Part shown: positions 8,912-34,442 of the stretch, one piece after another | Layout of the letters: each line of letters starts with the position of its first letter | How positions within the stretch are numbered: position 1 is the first letter of the stretch | Virus genome (UHGV): UHGV-0276305 | Reading direction: 5' to 3' (one strand) | Origin: a virus | Length of the DNA: 36,129 bases | Notes under the pieces: model-generated | Database searches by the model: none | Seen by the model: the letters and a program-made list of their open reading frames with translations, nothing else | What the model was told of the DNA's origin: nothing | Made by a program: the position numbers and the translations under genes

Positions 8912-9150
8912 TACATTTTTCCTGCTCTTCTAAGTTCGTTGTAAGCAATTTCCTCTTTATACGACCTCTGAATTTCAAGAAATTGTCTCAATGATAATAA
9001 ATCAGAGAATGTCATAGCAAAGAGTTGGTCAAGTGTTTCTTTACACCCTTCCATACCATAAATAGCAAGCACAAATTTCATCTCGTCTGCTTCTTCATAG
9101 GTTGCCTCTACAGCAGCATCAGTTAGTGGTGTCTGTAGAGTGTTACCCAT
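8911..9150 (-). CDS. tail assembly chaperone, frameshift-extension ORF (GT-like C-terminal part)
   Basis: 79-aa ORF in the -1 frame relative to the upstream chaperone; frame stays open upstream across the chaperone stop. Confidence 0.6.
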
Positions 9151-9152
9151 GT

Positions 9153-9551
9153 TTACTGAGAAGTTAGGCTTTTGAAAATGCTTGCTTCGAAAAAACTTCC
9201 GAAGTTTGCCTCCAGCGCAAATGCTAAGTAATCAATAAATTCACCATAGTTTGCTTGGAAGTATGTATCAATATTAAGTGGGAAGTCATCAACAGTTGCC
9301 CCTTGAAATAATAAGGTAGCCATCTCTTCAAGGTTAATTTCTTCAATTCTGTCAAAACAAGCTTCAACAAGTTCTTTAAATGGAACCATTGGAGCTTCTT
9401 TCTTACCCTTGTCAGTCAGACTTGACAGCATCTGTGCAAAAGTTGGAACAACAATTTTACCCAACTTCATAGACATCTTAATACCATCTCTTGCCCCAAG
9501 CAGAATGATATTCACTTTCTTACCGTTAATTACTCTAGATTCTGTTTTCAT
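9153..9551 (-). CDS. tail assembly chaperone (G-like)
   Basis: 132-aa ORF between tube and tape measure genes; contains slippery U_UUU_UUC about 40 nt before its stop. Confidence 0.6.
   Translation of the reverse strand: MKTESRVINGKKVNIILLGARDGIKMSMKLGKIVVPTFAQMLSSLTDKGKKEAPMVPFKELVEACFDRIEEINLEEMATLLFQGATVDDFPLNIDTYFQANYGEFIDYLAFALEANFGSFFEASIFKSLTSQ
9189..9195 (-). other. candidate -1 programmed ribosomal frameshift slippery heptamer (U_UUU_UUC)
   Basis: plus-strand gaaaaaa = minus-strand UUUUUUC, in-frame as U UUU UUC in the 132-aa chaperone; a -1 slip reads FFRSKHFQKPNFSVN then continues into the 79-aa ORF. Confidence 0.55.
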
Positions 9552-10086: not shown

Positions 10087-11439
10087 TTATTCGTAAGCCA
10101 CTGTACCTTTCAAGTCAACATCCAAGATAGCCCCTGCTAAGATACCTGCGAAGGTAACGTCTTTCAGGATACGTGCTTTCTTGTCTGCTAAAGCAACTTG
10201 AGAGGCTTTAGGAACATTAACTGTGTAAGATGACAGGAAGTTTCTGTTGACTGCTCTTTGCAGAGAGGTTTCAATGACTTGACGAATACGGGTAATACCA
10301 GTATCATCATAAGTAATCTTACCACCCTTCTGGTTAATTAGCAAGTCTCTCAGAGAAGTTTTCAGGTCTGATTCTAACCAGTCAACACCACGGACGATAT
10401 CAATCCATTCCCCACCAGAAGTAATCCCTCTACGAACCACTGGAACACCACCATCAAGGTCAATAAAGTTACAGTGACGTACATCTAAAGCAGACTTCTG
10501 AATACTTGTCAGAGGTCTCTGATTAGATGGTTGTAGAGAAGCTGCTACACCAGTTAGCTGAGCATTACCCCAAGCAATTGAACCTGCATCATATGGAGCG
10601 CCATAAGCAATGTATGCCATCTCTGGATAGTCTTCTGCTGCTGCGTGATGCCACAAGCAAACTGTACGAGTGTACATATTCTTAGCAAGCTGTGCTGGAA
10701 CATCATTTGCACTGGCTAATTCTGTACCTTGCAGGGCTGTTACATCGGAGTTAGCTGTAAAGAAGATTTTCTTGCGAGCCTGAATCTCAGAAGCCATTGC
10801 TAAGACAAACTGTTGAGTTCTGTCTTCTGCTGCAATGAAATACCAGTCAGTAGAGTAAGCTTCGATAGCTGCTAGAGCAGTTGATGCTGTATCGGCAGTT
10901 GTACTTGCAATATATACAGTCTGTGCTGTGGTTGTTACTTTCACAAAGTCATTATCACCAGCTTTGGTAATAATCATTGTGGCAGAGCCATTGCTACCAG
11001 TTACATTCACAGAAACCTTATCTTTGATTGTTGGGTCAGCTTCAATCTGTGTTTTAAACTGTTGCAACACTACTTCAGCAGTGTCTGAGTCTTGCGCTGT
11101 ATACTGGTATGGTTGAGAAATTCCACCGCCAGCAGCTACAGTAATCGAGTAGTCTGTACTTTCAGTAACGGCATCAGGAATTGATACAGTGTACTGCATA
11201 GCACGTCTACCAATATAAAGCTGAGTTACTTTAGGAGTCTGACTCCAAAGTTGTTTAGCAGCCTTATATGCAGCAGAGTTTTCATCGAAATCTTCAGCAA
11301 CTTCAGTTAAGGAAGTGTAACCACGGACTCTTTCTTCAAAGTTATCTGTTGAAGCTAAGAATAGTGGCAAACCAAAACCTTCTCTTGTAGTTCCTGCGGT
11401 GTTCAATGTAATATCTACATTAACAATTGGATTCCACAT
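10087..11439 (-). CDS. tail sheath protein
   Basis: 450-aa ORF immediately upstream of tube gene; positional and size-based. Confidence 0.6.
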   Translation of the reverse strand: MWNPIVNVDITLNTAGTTREGFGLPLFLASTDNFEERVRGYTSLTEVAEDFDENSAAYKAAKQLWSQTPKVTQLYIGRRAMQYTVSIPDAVTESTDYSITVAAGGGISQPYQYTAQDSDTAEVVLQQFKTQIEADPTIKDKVSVNVTGSNGSATMIITKAGDNDFVKVTTTAQTVYIASTTADTASTALAAIEAYSTDWYFIAAEDRTQQFVLAMASEIQARKKIFFTANSDVTALQGTELASANDVPAQLAKNMYTRTVCLWHHAAAEDYPEMAYIAYGAPYDAGSIAWGNAQLTGVAASLQPSNQRPLTSIQKSALDVRHCNFIDLDGGVPVVRRGITSGGEWIDIVRGVDWLESDLKTSLRDLLINQKGGKITYDDTGITRIRQVIETSLQRAVNRNFLSSYTVNVPKASQVALADKKARILKDVTFAGILAGAILDVDLKGTVAYE

Positions 11440-23128: not shown

Positions 23129-23204
23129 TGGTACAGGTGGAGGGAATTGAACCCATCGTCTTACTGATTAAGAGTCAGCCGCATAACCATTTTGCTACAC
23201 CTGC
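23129..23204 (-). tRNA. tRNA-Lys (CUU)
   Basis: acceptor GCAGGTG/CACCTGT, anticodon arm GCTGA-CTCTTAA-TCAGT, T-loop TTCAATT with imperfect T-stem (ATGGG/CCCTC), CCA encoded. Confidence 0.65.
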
Positions 23205-23211
23205 ATTAATT

Positions 23212-23289
23212 TGGTAGGAGACAAGGGATTCGAACCCTCAAACACCAACTTCTAAGGATGGTAGGTTTACCAATTACCGTCAATCTCCC
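23212..23289 (-). tRNA. tRNA with anticodon UAG (Leu by anticodon; short variable loop)
   Basis: 78 nt; acceptor GGGAGAT/GTCTCCT, D-loop contains TAATTGGTAAA, anticodon loop CTTAGAA (stem has one T-T mismatch), T-arm GAGGG-TTCGAAT-CCCTT, A73, CCA encoded. Confidence 0.5.
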
Positions 23290-23364
23290 ATTAAATCTTT
23301 TTAGAGAACTTCTAAGAACCTAAGCAACAAGGTTCCACAACAAGCTGTAATAACCTTAGAAGCC

Positions 23365-23390
23365 CTCTAAAAAGACCTAAAAAGGTCTTT
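23365..23390 (-). terminator. terminator-like hairpin inside tRNA cluster
   Basis: minus-strand AAAGACC-UUUUUA-GGUCUUU then UUAGAG; U-tract partly within stem. Confidence 0.35.
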
Positions 23391-23547
23391 GCATAGTCTT
23401 GTTTAATCCGGTGACTAGAACCTTTGGAGAGCTTGATATTATCTCTTCTCCGTGACACCTACTAGGTGTTTTATCTGTGTGTACGACAATACACGAGGGA
23501 TAAACCGAAAATGCGAGCAAGCATGGACGGTGTAAAATCTTATTAGG

Positions 23548-23635
23548 CGGTAAGTAAAGGAGTCGAACCCTCACCGTATCTCTACAGTGGCAACTGTTTT
23601 CAAGACAGTTTGGCTACCATTAGCCGCTACCTACC
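23548..23635 (-). tRNA. tRNA-Ser (UGA), long variable arm
   Basis: 88 nt; acceptor GGTAGGT/ACTTACC, anticodon arm ACTGT-CTTGAAA-ACAGT, about 20-nt variable arm, T-arm GAGGG-TTCGACT-CCTTT; CCA not encoded. Confidence 0.7.
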
Positions 23636-23648
23636 CCTAATAAGACTT

Positions 23649-23731
23649 TGGCATGGGACGGAGGAGTTGAACCACTTTGAAACGGTTTTGGAGGCCGTTG
23701 CTCATGCCTTAGAGTCTTAACATCGTCCCAC
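23649..23731 (-). tRNA. atypical tRNA-like gene, anticodon CCA (Trp-like)
   Basis: 83 nt; acceptor GTGGGAC/GTCCCAT, anticodon loop CTCCAAA on ACGGC/ACCGT stem, CCA encoded; D region about 7 nt too long and T-stem AGTGG/CCTCC has 2 mismatches. Confidence 0.4.
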
Positions 23732-23868
23732 ACTATAATTCGAAGCTTACCGTATTATCTCAACACTGTAAAGCCCCTTCTCAGATTATTTACATGTTCT
23801 GGAAAACATGAGATACAGACCACCTCCTTACACGGAGACCCGATAAGGTCGTCTAAGCAATCTGCTAA

Positions 23869-24216
23869 CTAATACTTTGCATGTCTTACCCTATGGCAAT
23901 TTGAACATAGCAAAACACATTTGTCAAGTTCATCTTTTAGTTCTTGAGAGAACTTCAGACTTTTTCTATGACCAATGTTAAAATCTTTCTCTGAAGGATT
24001 CAAATGATGGAAGTCATACACTGCTGGATGATACCTTTTACCACAATCATGACAAACCCCACCTTTGTACTCAATAGCTGAAAGTTTAAGTGCTCTTTGT
24101 CTTTCTATGGTTTGCTCATTAACACACTTTTTACAGTATGAATGAGTTCTCTTACCATCTTTCATGTAGAAATCATTTTCATCCTTGCTAAGTTTGCACC
24201 TAATACAAGTTTTCAT
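23869..24216 (-). CDS. HNH homing-endonuclease-like protein
   Basis: about 116 aa from MKTCIRCK (ORF-track N-terminal extension overlaps a tRNA-like gene); CxxC..CxxC zinc-finger-like N-terminus and HNH core (YDFHHLNP ... N ... LLCSNCHRVRH). Confidence 0.8.
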   Translation of the reverse strand: MKTCIRCKLSKDENDFYMKDGKRTHSYCKKCVNEQTIERQRALKLSAIEYKGGVCHDCGKRYHPAVYDFHHLNPSEKDFNIGHRKSLKFSQELKDELDKCVLLCSNCHRVRHAKY

Positions 24217-24230
24217 GATTTCTCCAAAAT

Positions 24231-24312
24231 TGGTCGAGGCGGCAGGACTCGAACCCGCATACTCCACTTACTCGGTTAACGGCGGTTTAGAAGACCGCTG
24301 AGATACGCCCCG
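24231..24312 (-). tRNA. atypical tRNA-like gene, anticodon UCU (Arg-like)
   Basis: 82 nt; acceptor CGGGGCG/CGCCTCG, canonical T-arm GCGGG-TTCGAGT-CCTGC, CCA encoded, perfect anticodon arm GCGGT-CTTCTAA-ACCGC; no recognisable D-arm and an extra 23-nt segment before the T-arm. Confidence 0.4.
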
Positions 24313-24325
24313 TAATTATCTTTAA

Positions 24326-24347
24326 AGACTCTCTTAGAAAGCCCTTA
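24326..24347 (-). promoter_or_regulatory. diverged copy of the conserved ~20-nt motif, just upstream of the Arg-like tRNA
   Basis: plus-strand agactctcttagaaagccctta versus ggactctcgtaagaaccctta at 21705. Confidence 0.25.
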
Positions 24348-24649
24348 AAGATGCCCACTTTATTAATCATACCGTGGGCTAGTACGCCAAATTCTTTGAT
24401 GAGGGATTGGAAGACCTCACTGGTGTTTAGCCTATCAAGCTACTGCCAGAAAAACATTGTCGTTTGCATTTATTTTAAATTTGCAAAATAGACGCTACGC
24501 AACGAAAACTATTCAGAATATGTACAACAAATTTCCCCACATTGTGTTACGTCTAACGCTCATGTATTGGTGTTTGAATTATACATATTATGAAGTATTT
24601 TAGTTACTATAAAGTGGTCACATCTCAATGTCAACAACTTTATTGAAAT

Positions 24650-24725
24650 TGGTACTGGTAGGTGGAATCGAACCACCGATGTTCCCTTATCAGGGGAGTG
24701 TTATAACCTTCTTAACTATACCAGC
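24650..24725 (-). tRNA. tRNA-Ile (GAU)
   Basis: acceptor GCTGGTA/TACCAGT, D-stem GTTA/TAAC, anticodon loop CTGATAA, T-arm GGTGG-TTCGATT-CCACC, CCA encoded. Confidence 0.75.
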
Positions 24726-24726
24726 T

Positions 24727-24803
24727 TGGAGGTTCAGATGGGAATCGAACCCACATTCATAGGGCTTATGAGACCCTTGCATTACCTTATCTGCGACTGA
24801 ACC
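24727..24803 (-). tRNA. tRNA-Met (CAU)
   Basis: acceptor GGTTCAG/CTGAACC, anticodon arm AGGGT-CTCATAA-GCCCT, T-arm GTGGG-TTCGATT-CCCAT, CCA encoded. Confidence 0.75.
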
Positions 24804-24807
24804 ATTT

Positions 24808-24883
24808 TGGTAGAAGTGGAGGGATTCGAACCCATCGCCTGTCAGATTAAAAGTCTGCCGCATCACCATTCTGCTACACTTCC
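24808..24883 (-). tRNA. tRNA-Lys (UUU)
   Basis: acceptor GGAAGTG/CACTTCT, anticodon loop CTTTTAA, T-loop TTCGAAT with same imperfect T-stem as tRNA-Lys(CUU), CCA encoded. Confidence 0.65.
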
Positions 24884-24887
24884 ATTA

Positions 24888-25031
24888 AATTATCTTTGTA
24901 GATAAGCTACCCAGACTTGCTTAAGGTCTGTAGCGATGTGCCTTTTTGGGTTTAAATCTAGAATTTACCCTTTCACCCTTTGTGGTCGCATACTCACAGG
25001 TAAGCTTAATAACTTATCTACAAAGATAATT
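24888..25031. repeat. 19-bp perfect inverted repeat flanking a ~106-bp core (long-stem structured element)
   Basis: 24888-24906 (aattatctttgtagataag) is the exact reverse complement of 25013-25031; core contains further short hairpins. Confidence 0.6.
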
Positions 25032-25032
25032 A

Positions 25033-25163
25033 CCAGACCGTTGTTTATCATCTTAAGTGCTACCATTACACCAACTCGACATCTGCCGAGTGAAGGAATC
25101 GAACCTTCGCCTTTTCTTTACCGAGAAATAGATTGTTTAAGTTTTGCTGTAAACGGTCTTCTG
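25033..25163. repeat. repeated spacer element copy A (ccagacc ... gtttgctg-N-ggtcttctg), contains a tRNA 3' fragment
   Basis: shares 5' ccagacc and 3' ttgctgNaaNggtcttctg with three other copies. Confidence 0.5.
25084..25108 (-). pseudogene. tRNA 3' fragment (T-arm plus acceptor 3' strand), no matching 5' half found
   Basis: GAAGG-TTCGATT-CCTTC T-arm followed by ACTCGGC; no complementary GCCGAGT within 100 nt upstream. Confidence 0.35.
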
Positions 25164-25176
25164 TAAATTTGTTGAG

Positions 25177-25250
25177 CCAGACCAAGTTTTAAATTTTTCA
25201 AAATTAAATTGGCTTGAAATTTTAAGTAACTTGCTGTATTTGGTCTTCTG
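25177..25250. repeat. repeated spacer element copy D
   Basis: ccagacc at 25177-25183 ... cttgctgtatttggtcttctg ending 25250. Confidence 0.5.
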
Positions 25251-25260
25251 CTCCTTTAAA

Positions 25261-25281
25261 GGATACTCGTAAGAACCCTTT
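25261..25281 (-). promoter_or_regulatory. second copy of the conserved ~20-nt motif (plus-strand GGATACTCGTAAGAACCCTTT)
   Basis: matches 21705-21724 at 18 of 20 positions; lies just upstream (in the transcription direction) of spacer copy D. Confidence 0.3.
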
Positions 25282-25311
25282 AAGGGAGGGGCTAAATAGC
25301 CCTCTCAAAAT

Positions 25312-25389
25312 TGGCGGTTACGAAGGGATTTGAACCCTCATCATCTCCCGTGACAGGGGAGTATTTTAACCAAATTAAACTACATAACC
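25312..25389 (-). tRNA. tRNA-Asp (GUC)
   Basis: acceptor GGTTATG/CGTAACC, D-stem GTTT/AAAT, anticodon arm CTCCC-CTGTCAC-GGGAG, T-arm GAGGG-TTCAAAT-CCCTT, CCA encoded. Confidence 0.8.
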
Positions 25390-25394
25390 TTTAT

Positions 25395-25482
25395 TGGTGT
25401 GCCGTGTAGGAGTCGAACCTACCGAGTCTCAATGACAAGGGATTTACAGTCCCCACCGCTACCATCTACGGGATAACGACAC
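25395..25482 (-). tRNA. tRNA-Tyr (GUA), long variable arm
   Basis: 88 nt; acceptor GTGTCGT/ACGGCAC, anticodon arm GGGGA-CTGTAAA-TCCCT, about 15-nt variable arm, T-arm GTAGG-TTCGACT-CCTAC, CCA encoded. Confidence 0.75.
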
Positions 25483-25551
25483 ATTTAATTTCTATTCAGG
25501 CTAAGGACTTGCACCTTACAAATCGGTGAGCAATTGCTTCTCTCCTAAATT

Positions 25552-25628
25552 TGGCGGTTAGTCAGGGATTCGAACCCTGTGCCATTCGCTTAACAGGCGA
25601 CCGCACATACCTTATGTGCTTCCTAACC
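25552..25628 (-). tRNA. tRNA-Asn (GUU)
   Basis: acceptor GGTTAGG/ACTAACC (one mismatch), D-stem GCAC/GTGC, anticodon loop CTGTTAA, T-arm CAGGG-TTCGAAT-CCCTG, CCA encoded. Confidence 0.75.
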
Positions 25629-25639
25629 TTAATACATTG

Positions 25640-25699
25640 CCAGACCGTGTTTTTTCTTTTATCCGCAAAAAGTAGTTTGTTGCTGAATACGGTCTTCTG
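25640..25699. repeat. repeated spacer element copy B
   Basis: ccagacc at 25640-25646 ... gtttgttgctgaatacggtcttctg ending 25699; directly abuts the 3' end of the next tRNA. Confidence 0.5.
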
Positions 25700-25705
25700 C
25701 AAAAT

Positions 25706-25782
25706 TGGAGGCGGGTGCAGGAGTCGAACCTACCGATACCATGCTAATGAGACATGTGAGACGCCCTTTCTCTATACCCGCA
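25706..25782 (-). tRNA. tRNA with anticodon CAU (Met, initiator or Ile2; unresolved)
   Basis: anticodon arm CATGT-CTCATTA-GCATG, T-arm GTAGG-TTCGACT-CCTGC, CCA encoded; position 1:72 unpaired (T-C) and 3 nt between acceptor and D-stem. Confidence 0.6.
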
Positions 25783-25793
25783 ATTCTTAATGA

Positions 25794-25866
25794 CCAGACC
25801 AAATCTCTTCTTTGTCCGATTTCGTGTCAGATGAATAAGATTAAGTTTGCTGCAATTGGTCTTCTG
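25794..25866. repeat. repeated spacer element copy C
   Basis: ccagacc at 25794-25800 ... gtttgctgcaattggtcttctg ending 25866. Confidence 0.5.
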
Positions 25867-25873
25867 TCAAAAC

Positions 25874-25951
25874 TGGCGTTCCAGAAGGGATTTGAACCCT
25901 CAAATATCCACTTTGAAAGAGTGGTGACTTTACCGTTTTGTCTACTGGAAC
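25874..25951 (-). tRNA. tRNA-Glu (UUC)
   Basis: acceptor GTTCCAG/CTGGAAC, anticodon arm CCACT-CTTTCAA-AGTGG, T-arm GAGGG-TTCAAAT-CCCTT, CCA encoded. Confidence 0.8.
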
Positions 25952-25958
25952 ATTAATT

Positions 25959-26035
25959 TGGTCTCTGTTGGAGGACTTGAACCTCCGGCCTTACCGCCCC
26001 AAACGGAACGCTCTACCAAGCTGAGCTAAACAGAG
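25959..26035 (-). tRNA. tRNA-Pro (UGG)
   Basis: acceptor CTCTGTT/AACAGAG, D-arm GCTC-AGCTTGGTA-GAGC, anticodon loop TTTGGGG, T-arm GGAGG-TTCAAGT-CCTCC, CCA encoded. Confidence 0.8.
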
Positions 26036-26160
26036 ATAAACTTTTCAAACTCTATGTAACCACTTTAACATTATTTTTTAGTGGTTGTCAAGAACTTTTT
26101 TAAAATATTTTTCAGTATCTTAGAAAAGCTCTCATTTCGTTTCTATGTAGAACATATTAA

Positions 26161-26193
26161 AGGGTATTAAACACATTGTCAATACCCTTTTTA
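26161..26193. terminator. hairpin with flanking T-runs between vWA gene and tRNA cluster
   Basis: 8-bp stem agggtatt / aataccct with 12-nt loop; TTTTT follows on plus strand, AAAAAG precedes it (weaker U-run on minus strand). Confidence 0.35.
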
Positions 26194-26200
26194 AAACTTT

Positions 26201-27616
26201 TTACCAGATATAACGGTCAATCATTACTGCTTTGAGCATTACACTAATTGGGTCAAACTTCTCACCACCAAGCAGAGCTTTTAAAGTGGCTGGAGAGAAA
26301 CCAGATACCATTGCTACACCGTTATCCTTAACAGATACTTCGCAAGTGCCATTACGGTTTGCTAAGTACCAGAATACCAGTTGTGGCATCTCATATCCAG
26401 CTTTTTTGTACTTACTCTGAATTGCTTCAAAGTTTGTACGACCGTTAGCTCCATCAACCTGATTGAACTCCATATCAGAGAAGATGATAAGCTTACTTGG
26501 CATATCTTTCTGAGTCAAGTTATTTCTCTTACCTGTCTCAAGAATGCGGTCAAAAGCTGCTTGTAAGTTAGTTGAACCGTATTCAACATGACGCATTACC
26601 TGACGATGACGGTTTCGTAAATCACCACTCAGTTCAATGAAGTGAGGGTTTGTTGAATAAACCATCAACTCATTCTTAAAGCAACCTGTATTACGTTCTG
26701 CTACATACAATGCAAGTGAAACACCAATATCAAGAGCAGTAATTGAACCAAAATTCACCCAAGACATTGAACTTGAAACATCAGACATACATAGAATGTT
26801 TTCACCCTCTGCCATCCAGTTTGGTAGTGCTTTCCACTGCTCATTAGCAACATCTGCATTACCATACTTAACAGATTTAATCACATCGTATGGGTAAACA
26901 GCACCAGCATTAATCTTAGTCTCACCCTTTGATAAGGACTCGATGTAAGCTTTGTAGCGTTCTCCATCTTTACGGTTAAACAGTTTTTGGTAACGTGCAG
27001 CAGCAAGTGAAGGAATCTTACTGTAGTCAATCTTACCAAACTCATTAGCAGAGATTTTTTGCTCAACTGTATCAGATAGTGCAGACAACAGTGTGCGGTA
27101 CTCTTTCTCACTCAAGTTGGCAAACTTACAGAAACGTTTTACAAACTGTTTGTGACGTGGTTTTACTCGTGGTAACCACTTAGCTGCTAAACCTGCTGTT
27201 GCAGGGTCTAGTAAAGCTGCTTCTAAATGTTTGAAGGCATCTGTCTCGAAACGAGTACCTACAAAGATTTTGAAGTCATCAAAGCGACCAAGCTCTGCAA
27301 TCTTATCCATAATGCGAAGAACCTGCGTAGGCTCTAAAACTTTATCTTCAATCGCTTGAAGTAAAACAGTTCGGAAAGCTTTACGCTCACCCATACCTTC
27401 TCGTACATCTCGCATATGCAGTAAAATACGAACTGCAACATCAGCATCCTCATGCAAAGCTTTGTAGAACAAGTCTGGTAAGATTTCTACATTGCTACGG
27501 CTAGAACCAGCAGCTTTGTAAAAGTCTACAAGAGCAGACATTGATGAAGTATGGTTTACAGCACCATTTTCAGTTCGACCTGCATGAAGGTGCGCATGTT
27601 TAAATAATTCGCTCAT
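26201..27616 (-). CDS. vWA-domain protein with N-terminal helical domain (candidate Ro60/TROVE-like RNA-binding protein)
   Basis: 471-aa ORF; C-terminal half has MIDAS-type DxSxS (MSDVSSSMS) and downstream T and D positions (GSTNL, LIIFSDMEFN) typical of vWA folds; N-terminal about 250 aa predicted helical; Ro60 relationship is inference from architecture and genomic context. Confidence 0.6.
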   Translation of the reverse strand: MSELFKHAHLHAGRTENGAVNHTSSMSALVDFYKAAGSSRSNVEILPDLFYKALHEDADVAVRILLHMRDVREGMGERKAFRTVLLQAIEDKVLEPTQVLRIMDKIAELGRFDDFKIFVGTRFETDAFKHLEAALLDPATAGLAAKWLPRVKPRHKQFVKRFCKFANLSEKEYRTLLSALSDTVEQKISANEFGKIDYSKIPSLAAARYQKLFNRKDGERYKAYIESLSKGETKINAGAVYPYDVIKSVKYGNADVANEQWKALPNWMAEGENILCMSDVSSSMSWVNFGSITALDIGVSLALYVAERNTGCFKNELMVYSTNPHFIELSGDLRNRHRQVMRHVEYGSTNLQAAFDRILETGKRNNLTQKDMPSKLIIFSDMEFNQVDGANGRTNFEAIQSKYKKAGYEMPQLVFWYLANRNGTCEVSVKDNGVAMVSGFSPATLKALLGGEKFDPISVMLKAVMIDRYIW

Positions 27617-27697: not shown

Positions 27698-28069
27698 TTA
27701 TTTTTTAAGAGTCGCTACAGCAGAGAACGTTGGTTTGTTATCTGTCTGTGGTTGACCACCATTATCAGGAGTCTTCTTAGTGTCTGCTGCAAGTGCTTTC
27801 ATCTCACCTGCTGAGTGAGTAAAGATAGTTTTACCGACCTCAATCATACTCTTGATGGTTACATCATCTGTGTTTAACCCGAACTCTGCAAGCTTAGCAG
27901 CGTCCCTTGTAACAATCGCCTCAAACAACTTTGCAGCAAACTCAGCAGAATTATCAATGGTCAGTTGAGCTTTTACAAGTGAGCTTTTGTTGCGAGAGCC
28001 TTTTGGTCTTCCAGATGGGTTTCCAGATTGGCCTTTTTTAAACTGGCCTTTGTTTGTTCTGTTTTTCAT
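27698..28069 (-). CDS. hypothetical protein with Gly/Pro/Lys-rich N-terminal motif (KGQSGNPSGRPKGSRNK)
   Basis: 123-aa ORF; motif recalled from a family of small phage proteins of unknown function. Confidence 0.55.
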   Translation of the reverse strand: MKNRTNKGQFKKGQSGNPSGRPKGSRNKSSLVKAQLTIDNSAEFAAKLFEAIVTRDAAKLAEFGLNTDDVTIKSMIEVGKTIFTHSAGEMKALAADTKKTPDNGGQPQTDNKPTFSAVATLKK

Positions 28070-34141: not shown

Positions 34142-34217
34142 CTGTATGTGTTCGTTTTGCAATCGCTGAAATGATTAACAAGGCAATCTTAAAAGATGCC
34201 TATGGAGAAACTAAGTA

Positions 34218-34442
34218 ATGATTAAGACACCTGTACCAATTTTTGGATTTCCTTCTATAGAAGAGTTCAAAGTTTATCTTGACAAAAACTTCTACAACGA
34301 GCAGCCTGTTACTTTGCTGAAGAGCGACTTATCAGAACTTCTTGATATGGTTATTAAGGCAACTTCTGAGAAGGAACCTGAGCAGAAAGCTGAGAAGAAG
34401 ACTAGTAAGAAATCCGATAAGAAGGCTGAAAAGTCTGAGTAA
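34218..34442 (+). CDS. hypothetical protein with Lys/Glu-rich tail
   Basis: 74-aa ORF. Confidence 0.45.
   Translation: MIKTPVPIFGFPSIEEFKVYLDKNFYNEQPVTLLKSDLSELLDMVIKATSEKEPEQKAEKKTSKKSDKKAEKSE

Follow-up and report, generated by a model that had tools for sequence, protein, structure and literature searches.

The locus considered here lies in the virus genome UHGV-0276305, of which one strand of 36,129 nucleotides (nt), called the window below, was analysed. On the minus strand of the window, a 123-amino-acid (aa) DUF5681 gene is followed by a gene for a 471-aa Ro60-like protein, by two promoter-like sites and by a cluster of 25 tRNAs, in which four small structured RNAs, designated Y1 to Y4, are embedded (Table 1). 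Ro60 and its Y RNAs form a classic, still poorly understood RNA-surveillance particle, and the locus quite probably encodes a divergent ribonucleoprotein of this type, composed of a divergent protein family and a divergent RNA family. Within the cluster, tRNA-Pro (25959-26035) comes first and lies directly after the 471-aa gene on the same strand, the arrangement that a sequence-only reading of the window had reported. The 3.1-kb region around these elements is ~97% identical to that of Felix O1-like phages (LF82P9, VpaE1, finno, Bas63/JohannRWettstein and Felix O1), and the window belongs to a Felixounavirus, a Felix O1-type phage.

A Ro60-Like Protein Outside the TROVE Family

The AlphaFold2 (AF2) model of the 471-aa protein (predicted local distance difference test score, pLDDT, 89.5; predicted template modelling score, pTM, 0.88) consists of helices up to about residue 263, followed by an alpha/beta region of strands and helices at residues 274-455, while residues D279-x-S281-x-S283, T349 and D381 of the MIDAS (metal-ion-dependent adhesion site) are invariant in 40 family members. 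Both observations bear out the helical N-terminal half and the C-terminal vWA domain with a MIDAS DxSxS motif that had been read from the sequence. Moreover, many basic residues in the helical half (R40, R69, R72, R78, R111 and K146) are invariant among the same 40 members. Ro60 binds Y RNA on the outer surface of its ring and misfolded RNA ends in the central hole, a property to which these residues would speak only indirectly. When the model was compared with the PDB by Foldseek, the best 12 matches were all Ro60/TROVE chains, aligned over the full length (E 4e-8 to 4e-6, template modelling score 0.47-0.67), and isolated vWA domains ranked below them. The likeness to the Ro60 ring thus extends over the helical half and is not limited to the vWA domain. 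In the modelled fold, helical (HEAT-like) repeats form a Ro60-like ring that a vWA/MIDAS domain closes, and the structural comparison agrees over the full length with the Ro60 architecture that had been proposed.

The sequence family, in contrast, is DUF2828/DUF7788 and not TROVE, and the kinship with Ro60 is visible mainly in structure. Pfam assigns the protein to DUF2828 (8e-30) and DUF7788 (2e-43), and PHROG places it in family 850, 'RNA-binding protein'. The Pfam vWA_Ro60 profile is touched weakly by 7 of the 40 family members (best 4.7e-4). The earlier assignment to Ro60/TROVE therefore holds for the fold of both ring and vWA domain, but not for the sequence family; in profile searches, the weak vWA_Ro60 matches speak for it and the missing TROVE match against it.

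The orthologue in Bas63 is gp130 (bas63_0130), which has the same neighbours, position and length, and a 3.1-kb query containing the gene shows ~96% nucleotide identity. A 2024 preprint (PhageMaP, PMC11482910) describes Bas63 gp130 as 'structurally similar to Ro60' and reports that it counteracts the Ppl defence system. Some family members, including those in mycobacteriophage records, are labelled 'Ro-like RNA binding protein' or 'RNA-binding protein' in GenBank, and the protein is found by tblastn in 710 of 50,697 phage records. Thus, the protein half of the present finding is correct but already known.

Four Y-Like RNAs Downstream of the Protein Gene

Y1-Y4 sit 0.33-1.2 kb downstream of the protein gene, on the same strand, and share a common fold in which a 4-bp outer stem leads through a 3x1 internal loop (AGA/G) into a helix of 7-8 bp (AGACCnn/nnGGUCU), followed after 3 nt by CAGCAA. 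Written along the minus strand, the 5' side is 5'-nnnC-AGA-AGACCnnn-nn-CAGCAA, and the closing strand nnnGGUCU-G-Gnnn follows 40-110 nt later. In Y1, the outer stem is UGAC/GUCA and the AGA/G internal loop precedes the helix AGACCAA/UUGGUCU and UUG-CAGCAA; Y2 combines UUGC/GCAA with AGACCGU/ACGGUCU and AUU-CAGCAA, and Y3 combines GAGC/GCUC with AGACCAA/UUGGUCU and AUA-CAGCAA. The stem of Y4 reads UUAC/GUAA, AGA/G and AGACCGUU/AACGGUCU, with UA-CAGCAA. The paralogues covary both in the outer stem (UGAC, UUGC, GAGC and UUAC) and in the extension of the helix (CAA:UUG versus CGU:ACG). The string AGAAGACC-N5-CAGCAA occurs in four minus-strand copies within 830 nt, where 0.46 would be expected and none of 100 shuffles reaches four, and it is in this form that the 'repeated structured spacers' mentioned in the sequence-only reading are confirmed. 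Y1 and Y2 begin 3-4 nt beyond the preceding tRNA's 3' end and extend to 8 nt before the following tRNA's 5' end and, since they abut the flanking tRNAs in this way, tRNA-processing enzymes would release them.

Table 1. Positions of the Ro60-like gene, the Y-like RNAs and surrounding features in the window, with short copies of the RNA motif found on other contigs.
Feature	Position	Strand	Basis
Ro60-like protein, 471 aa; N-terminal helical (TROVE-like) ring and C-terminal vWA domain with MIDAS	26201..27616	-	Pfam, PHROG, AF2, Foldseek
Y-like RNA 1 (Y1, 79 nt), between tRNA-Glu and tRNA-Met	25791..25869	-	
Y-like RNA 2 (Y2, 66 nt), between tRNA-Met and tRNA-Asn	25637..25702	-	fold z -2.3
Y-like RNA 3 (Y3, 80 nt)	25174..25253	-	fold z -2.3
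Y-like RNA 4 (Y4, 137 nt), YrlA-like member	25030..25166	-	fold -33.4 kcal/mol, z -2.2
Long-stem structured RNA (~145 nt), between Y4 and tRNA-Lys	24888..25031	-	inverted repeat, fold
Part of tRNA operon embedding the Y-like RNAs: tRNA-Pro, Glu, Met, Asn, Tyr, Asp, Lys, Met, Ile	24650..26035	-	
Sigma-70-like promoter sites (two, in tandem) preceding the tRNA/Y-RNA operon	26054..26182	-	consensus matches only
Conserved upstream neighbour, 123 aa, DUF5681	27698..28069	-	
Shine-Dalgarno-abutting copies on other contigs	L014 1756-1801, L019 2856-2890, L033 5947-5985, L035 5900-5937, L008 5951-5986		

The tRNA-Like Module of Y4

The stem of Y4 encloses, in order, a V hairpin (~25110-25131), a T-arm (25092-25108), a closed acceptor-like stem of 7 bp (25074-25091) and a D-arm (25056-25072). 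The T-arm GAAGGTTCGATTCCTTC folds as GAAGG-UUCGAUU-CCUUC, and the closed stem ACUCGGC-AGAU-GUCGAGU is followed by UG and by the D-arm, which has an AAUGGUA loop; equivalents of U8, A14, G18G19, A21 and T54-psi55-C56/A58 are legible in the sequence. The fragment at 25084-25108, described beforehand as an orphan T-arm/acceptor piece, does contain a genuine T-arm and 3' acceptor strand, but it is not an orphan, since the closed 7-bp acceptor-like stem and a D-arm follow it and the long stem encloses the whole. The module order V, T, closed acceptor stem, D is the order of YrlA (PMC4201824).

Among orthologues the acceptor-like stem has been rewritten and is still a perfect helix (ACUCGGC/GUCGAGU, ACCCUUC/GAAGGGU and ACACGU/GCGUGU). 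In the alignment with Mordin, Sf16 and EcSzw-2 it keeps 7 bp, with three pairs changed on both sides. Gene finders misread this permuted module: in Citrobacter phage Mordin (L082 6465-7214), ARAGORN calls a spurious permuted transfer-messenger RNA (tmRNA), complete with a tag peptide, over the Y4 orthologue, and in phage ASO1B (L092 149-277), GenBank holds a tRNAscan-SE call of a 129-nt tRNA-Thr-GGT that runs across parts of Y3 and Y4.

Conservation of the RNAs in Phages Encoding DUF2828 Proteins

The four Y-like RNAs are also present in Mooglevirus (Mordin, Sf16) and Suspvirus (EcSzw-2), whose proteins are 85-89% identical to that of the window, with two A-U pairs turned into G.U. In Yersinia phage P778 (53% protein identity), four elements lie in the tRNA cluster, one of them with a T-arm; ACA or AUA replaces AGA and A replaces the 3' G, the spacing to CAGCAA is unchanged, and the helices are GGACUG/CAGUCC, GGAUUC/GAAUCC and GGACUC/GAGUCC. 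The metagenomic relative L007 (47% identity) likewise has four elements, of which one is tRNA-like. P778 (L085) also carries further T-arms outside called tRNAs at 9357-9380 and 10236-10265, as well as a tRNA-like region at 9011-9150 that has acceptor strands GCGGGUG...CACCUGC, a D-arm, a T-arm and ~65 extra central nt, is not called by ARAGORN, and could be an intron-containing or otherwise expanded tRNA.

For a comparison across the family, 80 IMG/VR loci encoding relatives of the protein (39-98% identity) were assembled together with named phages. The exact Felix-type motif (AGAAGACC...GGTCT), tried as a family marker, is absent from distant loci beyond the Ounavirinae, and a structure-based descriptor was therefore adopted. 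A 5' signature (two A's in the 3 nt before the helix, then AG or GG, N8 and CAGCAA) is found, when taken alone, at 57 sites on the same strand as the protein gene and at 2 on the other strand, in 902 kb. Relaxing this signature gives 137 sites, and for 93 of them a 3' partner strand pairing over at least 6 bp is present no more than 250 nt away, versus 19% in shuffled controls; the base after the 3' partner, which was outside the search criteria, is G in 77 of the 93. In 69 distinct instances, selected for pairs 1-6, the seventh pair is canonical in 93% (null 42%) and the eighth in 26%, which indicates a helix of exactly 7 bp; positions 3-7 of this helix show 3-4 or more pair types each. With a descriptor free of sequence in the helix (any 7-bp helix, N3, CAGCAA, up to 260 nt, then G), 58 of the 82 distant loci yield between them 103 matches on the strand of the gene, versus 4 matches on the opposite strand. 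The matches have a median length of 65 nt and occur in 1-5 copies per locus; 82 of the 103 are no more than 1 kb away from the gene, on either side of it, and 17 have a T-loop. The centre of the elements varies in length (33-254 nt). Across the family, the 5' side is (U/A)AA-AG-N5-N3-CAGCAA, with (C)AGAAGACC-N5-CAGCAA as the form in the window. The outer stem was dropped as a family feature, its pairing in distant loci (36-49%) being that of the null.

These elements thus constitute a structured RNA family with strong covariation and, in a subset, a tRNA-like module, and this family and the protein family are strictly associated on the same strand in phages of four bacterial phyla. The arrangement varies from phage to phage. 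Three copies lie just upstream of the gene in Listeria phage LP-083-2 and three just downstream of it, with no tRNA between, in Staphylococcus phage 6ec, while those of Bacillus phage Nate lie between tRNAs and the single one of Campylobacter phage CP81 lies between a tRNA cluster and the gene. In Mycobacterium phage LeBron, the gene is followed by three RNAs and an intrinsic terminator, again with no tRNA between, and the middle RNA combines a T-arm with a closed GCCACC/GGUGGU stem and a D-arm of canonical form. Enzymes acting on RNA or DNA ends are neighbours of the Ro60-like gene in Gram-positive phages: besides the RtcB-like ligase of LP-083-2, described below, a gene annotated as 'exonuclease' lies downstream of the Ro60-like gene at ~0.2 kb in 6ec (L090 4183-5397) and at ~0.6 kb in Nate (L091 4488-5729).

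Besides LeBron, the tRNA-like module is found in L007, L081 and L082-84. In the contig L081 its sequence is UCUCCCG-CCCAAU-CGGGAGA-UA-GCUC-AGUCUGGUA-GAGC, in which the 5' half of a textbook tRNA is linked to the 3' acceptor strand belonging to it. A different construction is seen at L060 5753-5850, where an unpermuted D-arm, an anticodon-like arm and a T-arm are present, the Y helix replaces the acceptor stem and CCGCAA stands for CAGCAA; the motif and a tRNA are here fused in a second manner, which recalls the difference between YrlA and Yrn1. The tRNA-like features of Yrn1 of Deinococcus radiodurans are arranged unlike those of YrlA, and the L060 copy is likewise unpermuted, although Yrn1 differs from it in binding motif and protein family.

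In several contigs, the Shine-Dalgarno sequence of the DUF2828 gene is directly preceded by a minimal copy of 33-45 nt (…CU-G-AAGGAG; Table 1), and in Vibrio phage ValKK3 (L086 2461-2510) the copy overlaps the DUF2828 start codon. The copies that abut the Shine-Dalgarno sequence suggest that the protein may regulate its own translation. When 11 distant loci were compared with Rfam at the gathering score, only tRNAs and one group I intron were matched, the latter at L024 11696-11922 (71.5 bits) in a distant DUF2828 phage contig.

Comparison with Known Ro60/Y-RNA Systems

For Ro60 genes, Y RNAs are encoded on the same strand at a distance of up to 4 kb, and one or more of them has a tRNA-like domain in the order variable hairpin, T-arm, closed acceptor stem and D-arm (V-T-AS-D) (Chen et al. 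2014, PMC4201824). The systems of bacterial Ro60 (Rsr) with YrlA and YrlB in Salmonella, Mycobacterium smegmatis and cluster C mycobacteriophages (PMC4201824) resemble the present one in combining a ring protein with a vWA domain, and likewise have several small RNAs on the same strand within a few kb, with stems closed by the 5' and 3' ends. As in Y1-Y4, where it is accompanied by covariation, the stem of the YrlA type is interrupted by a bulge or internal loop, and there is one tRNA-like RNA per locus, as is the case for Y4. However, bacterial Ro60 matches the TROVE profile, whereas the DUF2828/DUF7788 family does not, and the RNAs of the window are embedded in a tRNA operon, unlike those of bacterial Ro60/YrlA loci. 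The RtcB neighbour of the Salmonella rsr-yrlBA-rtcBA operon has only an occasional counterpart here: in Listeria phage LP-083-2 (L089 5315-6458), an RtcB-like RNA ligase gene lies 1.3 kb downstream of the Ro60-like gene.

A parallel in a phage is found in Thermus phage phiLo, whose Ro60 binds two adjacent Yrl RNAs (PMC12135203; PDB 9KOP, 9L5Y) and which likewise presents a phage-encoded Ro60 fold of ~460 aa, two adjacent Y-like RNAs and a proposed anti-defence use. Nevertheless, the phiLo protein is labelled as a TROVE-domain protein in the PDB and its Yrl RNAs have a CGAA motif, unlike the family described here, and the profile of the DUF2828 family does not retrieve the phiLo protein by sequence.

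In Bas63, the preprint on gp130 suggested only that 'some tRNA genes are possibly Y RNAs' (PMC11482910), whereas the RNAs described here are spacers and not annotated tRNAs. The Y-like spacers of Bas63 are covered by two opposite-strand 'hypothetical protein' open reading frames (ORFs; bas63_0137 and bas63_0138); in other GenBank records the region is unannotated or, in ASO1B, called as the 129-nt tRNA-Thr. Such RNAs have escaped notice, or have been recorded as small spurious ORFs or unusual tRNAs, and the CAGCAA-helix motif provides a simple marker for annotating them in phage genomes. The RNA part of the finding and its breadth across phages appear new: no publication describing these RNAs was found in a search that did not extend to Burroughs and Aravind 2016, to the 2020 Annual Review on bacterial Ro60 or to the supplementary tables of Chen et al. 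2014, among whose 22 phages there may be a few with DUF2828.

Proposed Ribonucleoprotein and Its Possible Role

A phage Ro60-like protein with adjacent Y-RNA-like partners, as suspected from the sequence, is supported by the fold, by the YrlA layout of Y4 and by the co-location of both families, and from the co-location we infer that the protein binds Y1-Y4. In this ribonucleoprotein, Y1-Y4 would be transcribed together with the tRNA operon from the promoters just downstream of the protein gene, and the enzymes that trim the flanking tRNAs would free them as stable products. The shared module, formed by a helix of 7-8 bp that starts with A-U and G-C, a basal loop of 5' AGA and 3' G, and a single-stranded CAGCAA 3 nt further on, may be the binding site of the protein, as suggested by co-location, in the way that the bulged stem of Y RNAs is for Ro60. 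The tRNA-like domain of YrlA recruits polynucleotide phosphorylase (PNPase) and tRNA-modifying enzymes (PMC4201824; for the phage case, PMC12135203) and, by analogy, the tRNA-like elbow of Y4 might dock the particle onto tRNA-recognising host enzymes or exoribonucleases such as PNPase. The likely role of the particle during infection would be to deal with structured or damaged RNA, and the RNAs would serve as regulators or tethers.

Several observations weigh against such a ribonucleoprotein. The TROVE profile is unmatched in all 40 family members (Pfam, to E 10), and sequence searches of the PDB with both the single sequence and the 40-sequence profile return noise only. In the RNAs, the motif of bacterial Y RNAs is GNCGAAN0-1G (GGUCCGA in metazoa), whereas the elements described here have the AG-helix, N3, CAGCAA and a 3' G. 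Rfam, the curated collection by which an RNA-model check had been proposed, does not match the Y-like elements either: a scan of 23200-26300 at E<=10 gives tRNA and chance-level matches only, the presence of a YrlA model in Rfam 15 being unconfirmed. As both the TROVE profile and the GNCGAA and Rfam tests failed, the system is filed here as a divergent branch and not as a member of the known family. Across the DUF2828 phages, the strict descriptor is unmatched in 24 of the 82 distant loci, the formal covariation count is partly circular in that the cross-family pairs 1-6 were chosen for complementarity, and the outer stem, not conserved outside the Ounavirinae and P778, is apparently peculiar to those versions that lie within tRNA operons. 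Moreover, gp130 by itself, produced without the Y-like RNAs from either a plasmid or T7, restores growth on a Ppl strain (PMC11482910), which means that these RNAs are not required for that activity and are more likely to be regulators or tethers than obligatory cofactors for it. Finally, both the accumulation of the RNAs and their binding by the protein are predictions.

Taking these points together with the distribution described above, we are moderately inclined to regard DUF2828/DUF7788 proteins and CAGCAA-helix RNAs as a second, previously unrecognised branch of the Ro60/Y-RNA superfamily, encoded by hundreds of sequenced phages, with an RNA recognition code of its own and often with a tRNA-mimic paralogue, that would manage RNA damage or evade defence. 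The proposed branch would span phages of Gram-negative, Gram-positive and actinobacterial hosts, namely those like Felix O1, KVP40, Listeria LP-083-2 (Pecentumvirus), Campylobacter CP81 and Mycobacterium LeBron (Bronvirus). If this is true, a second branch that looks unrelated in sequence and uses another RNA motif would offer a natural comparison for how the ring reads RNA. The Felix O1/Bas63 orthologue already has a phenotype, the countering of Ppl, and the proposed RNA partners make its mechanism directly testable in a tractable phage of E. coli or Salmonella.

Alternative Explanations

Among the alternatives, it is unlikely that the motif is solely a cis-acting operator, bound on the mRNA or precursor by the protein or by another factor and giving rise to no stable small RNAs. 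The short copies placed directly before the Shine-Dalgarno sequence (L014, L019, L033, L035 and L008) and the overlap with the start codon in ValKK3 are what such an operator would look like. However, in the window there is no copy in the leader of the protein gene, and the four that exist lie downstream, behind promoter-like sites of their own and between tRNAs. In addition, one copy per locus often contains a full tRNA-like elbow, including a closed acceptor stem that covaries, which an operator would not need, and the roles of operator and small RNA can coexist.

It is decidedly unlikely that the repeats are processing or spacer hairpins of the tRNA operon, guiding, for example, RNase E, RNase III or RNase P and unrelated to the protein. 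This would fit the location of the elements between tRNAs in the window and in Bacillus phage Nate, and the almost exact filling of the tRNA spacers by Y1 and Y2; moreover, a tendency of DUF2828 genes and tRNA clusters to occur near each other could partly explain the association. On the other hand, only four elements occur among the 25 tRNAs, all within 1.2 kb of the gene, and most spacers have none. The three copies of LeBron and of 6ec follow the gene directly without an intervening tRNA, the LeBron unit ending in a terminator, and several contigs have a single short copy just before the ribosome-binding site of the gene.

An RNA with a 19-bp stem at 24888-25031 had been named first among the RNA elements in the sequence-only reading. 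Its arms (24888-24909 and 25010-25031) are 22 nt long, 95% complementary and 100 nt apart, and the 148-nt stretch folds very stably at -48.3 kcal/mol (z = -6.3; none of 200 shuffles equals it). It is also present in Mooglevirus and Suspvirus, where 7 base pairs are kept through double changes relative to Felixounavirus, so that compensatory changes extend across three genera, and 1.2 kb separate it from the gene, with which it shares the strand. Its long terminal stem is real, stable and conserved, but the element has neither the CAGCAA signature nor a tRNA-like module, and in P778 the last Y-like RNA is followed within ~12 nt by tRNA-Ala, with no counterpart of the element seen there. It is the CAGCAA-helix motif, and not the long stem, that tracks the protein family across phyla. 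The possibility that this element is the Y RNA and the repeats are incidental is therefore very slight; it is treated here as a separate conserved structured RNA that happens to follow Y4, and Y1-Y4 are the likely RNA partners of the protein.

Finally, it is scarcely credible that Y4 is a decayed or mis-assembled pair of tRNA genes and the protein a vWA protein with a function unrelated to RNA, as the 129-nt 'tRNA-Thr-GGT' of tRNAscan-SE across Y3/Y4 in ASO1B and the permuted 'tmRNA*' of ARAGORN across the Mordin orthologue might suggest, given that the order of T-arm, closed acceptor stem and D-arm is kept with compensatory rewriting in Mordin, Sf16 and EcSzw-2, that the same layout occurs in unrelated contigs and in LeBron, and that the helical half matches the Ro60 ring and not the vWA domain alone.

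Other Features of the Locus

Upstream, the Ro60-like gene is adjoined by the DUF5681 gene not only in Felixouna-, Moogle- and Suspvirus but also in Yersinia phage P778. The two promoter-like sites, both of them consensus matches only, are TTGACA-17-TAATAT at 26182-26154 and TTGACA-18-TAAAGT at 26091-26062.

Within the tRNA cluster, a tRNA at 24234-24312 on the minus strand is found by Rfam (31.7 bits) and missed by ARAGORN, and in relatives the equivalent site is annotated as tRNA-Arg(TCT). A 132-aa ORF (23869-24267, minus strand), which matches PHROG 2255 (HNH homing endonucleases) at 6e-42, overlaps this tRNA with its start, and a tRNA-Arg is likewise followed by an HNH gene in Shigella phage Sf16. 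Long hairpins occur in the cluster at 23291-23380 (26-nt arms, 85% complementary) and at 24501-24605 (27-nt arms, 78%); they match only microRNA-precursor models of Rfam, at chance level, and may be additional structured RNAs of the spacers or sites of processing. Between tRNA-Asp and Y3 (25256-25311, minus strand) there are two short hairpins, GAGAGGGCUAUUUAGCCCCUCCC and UUAAAGG...CCUUUAAAGG, which could act as a terminator, an attenuator or a processing site. A weak match to the Y-like descriptor (AGUCGCU...CAGCAA...AGCGAUU-G, with one G.U pair) at 34158-34334 on the minus strand falls where two plus-strand ORFs are separated by 350 nt, at a great distance from the protein gene, and is probably due to chance.

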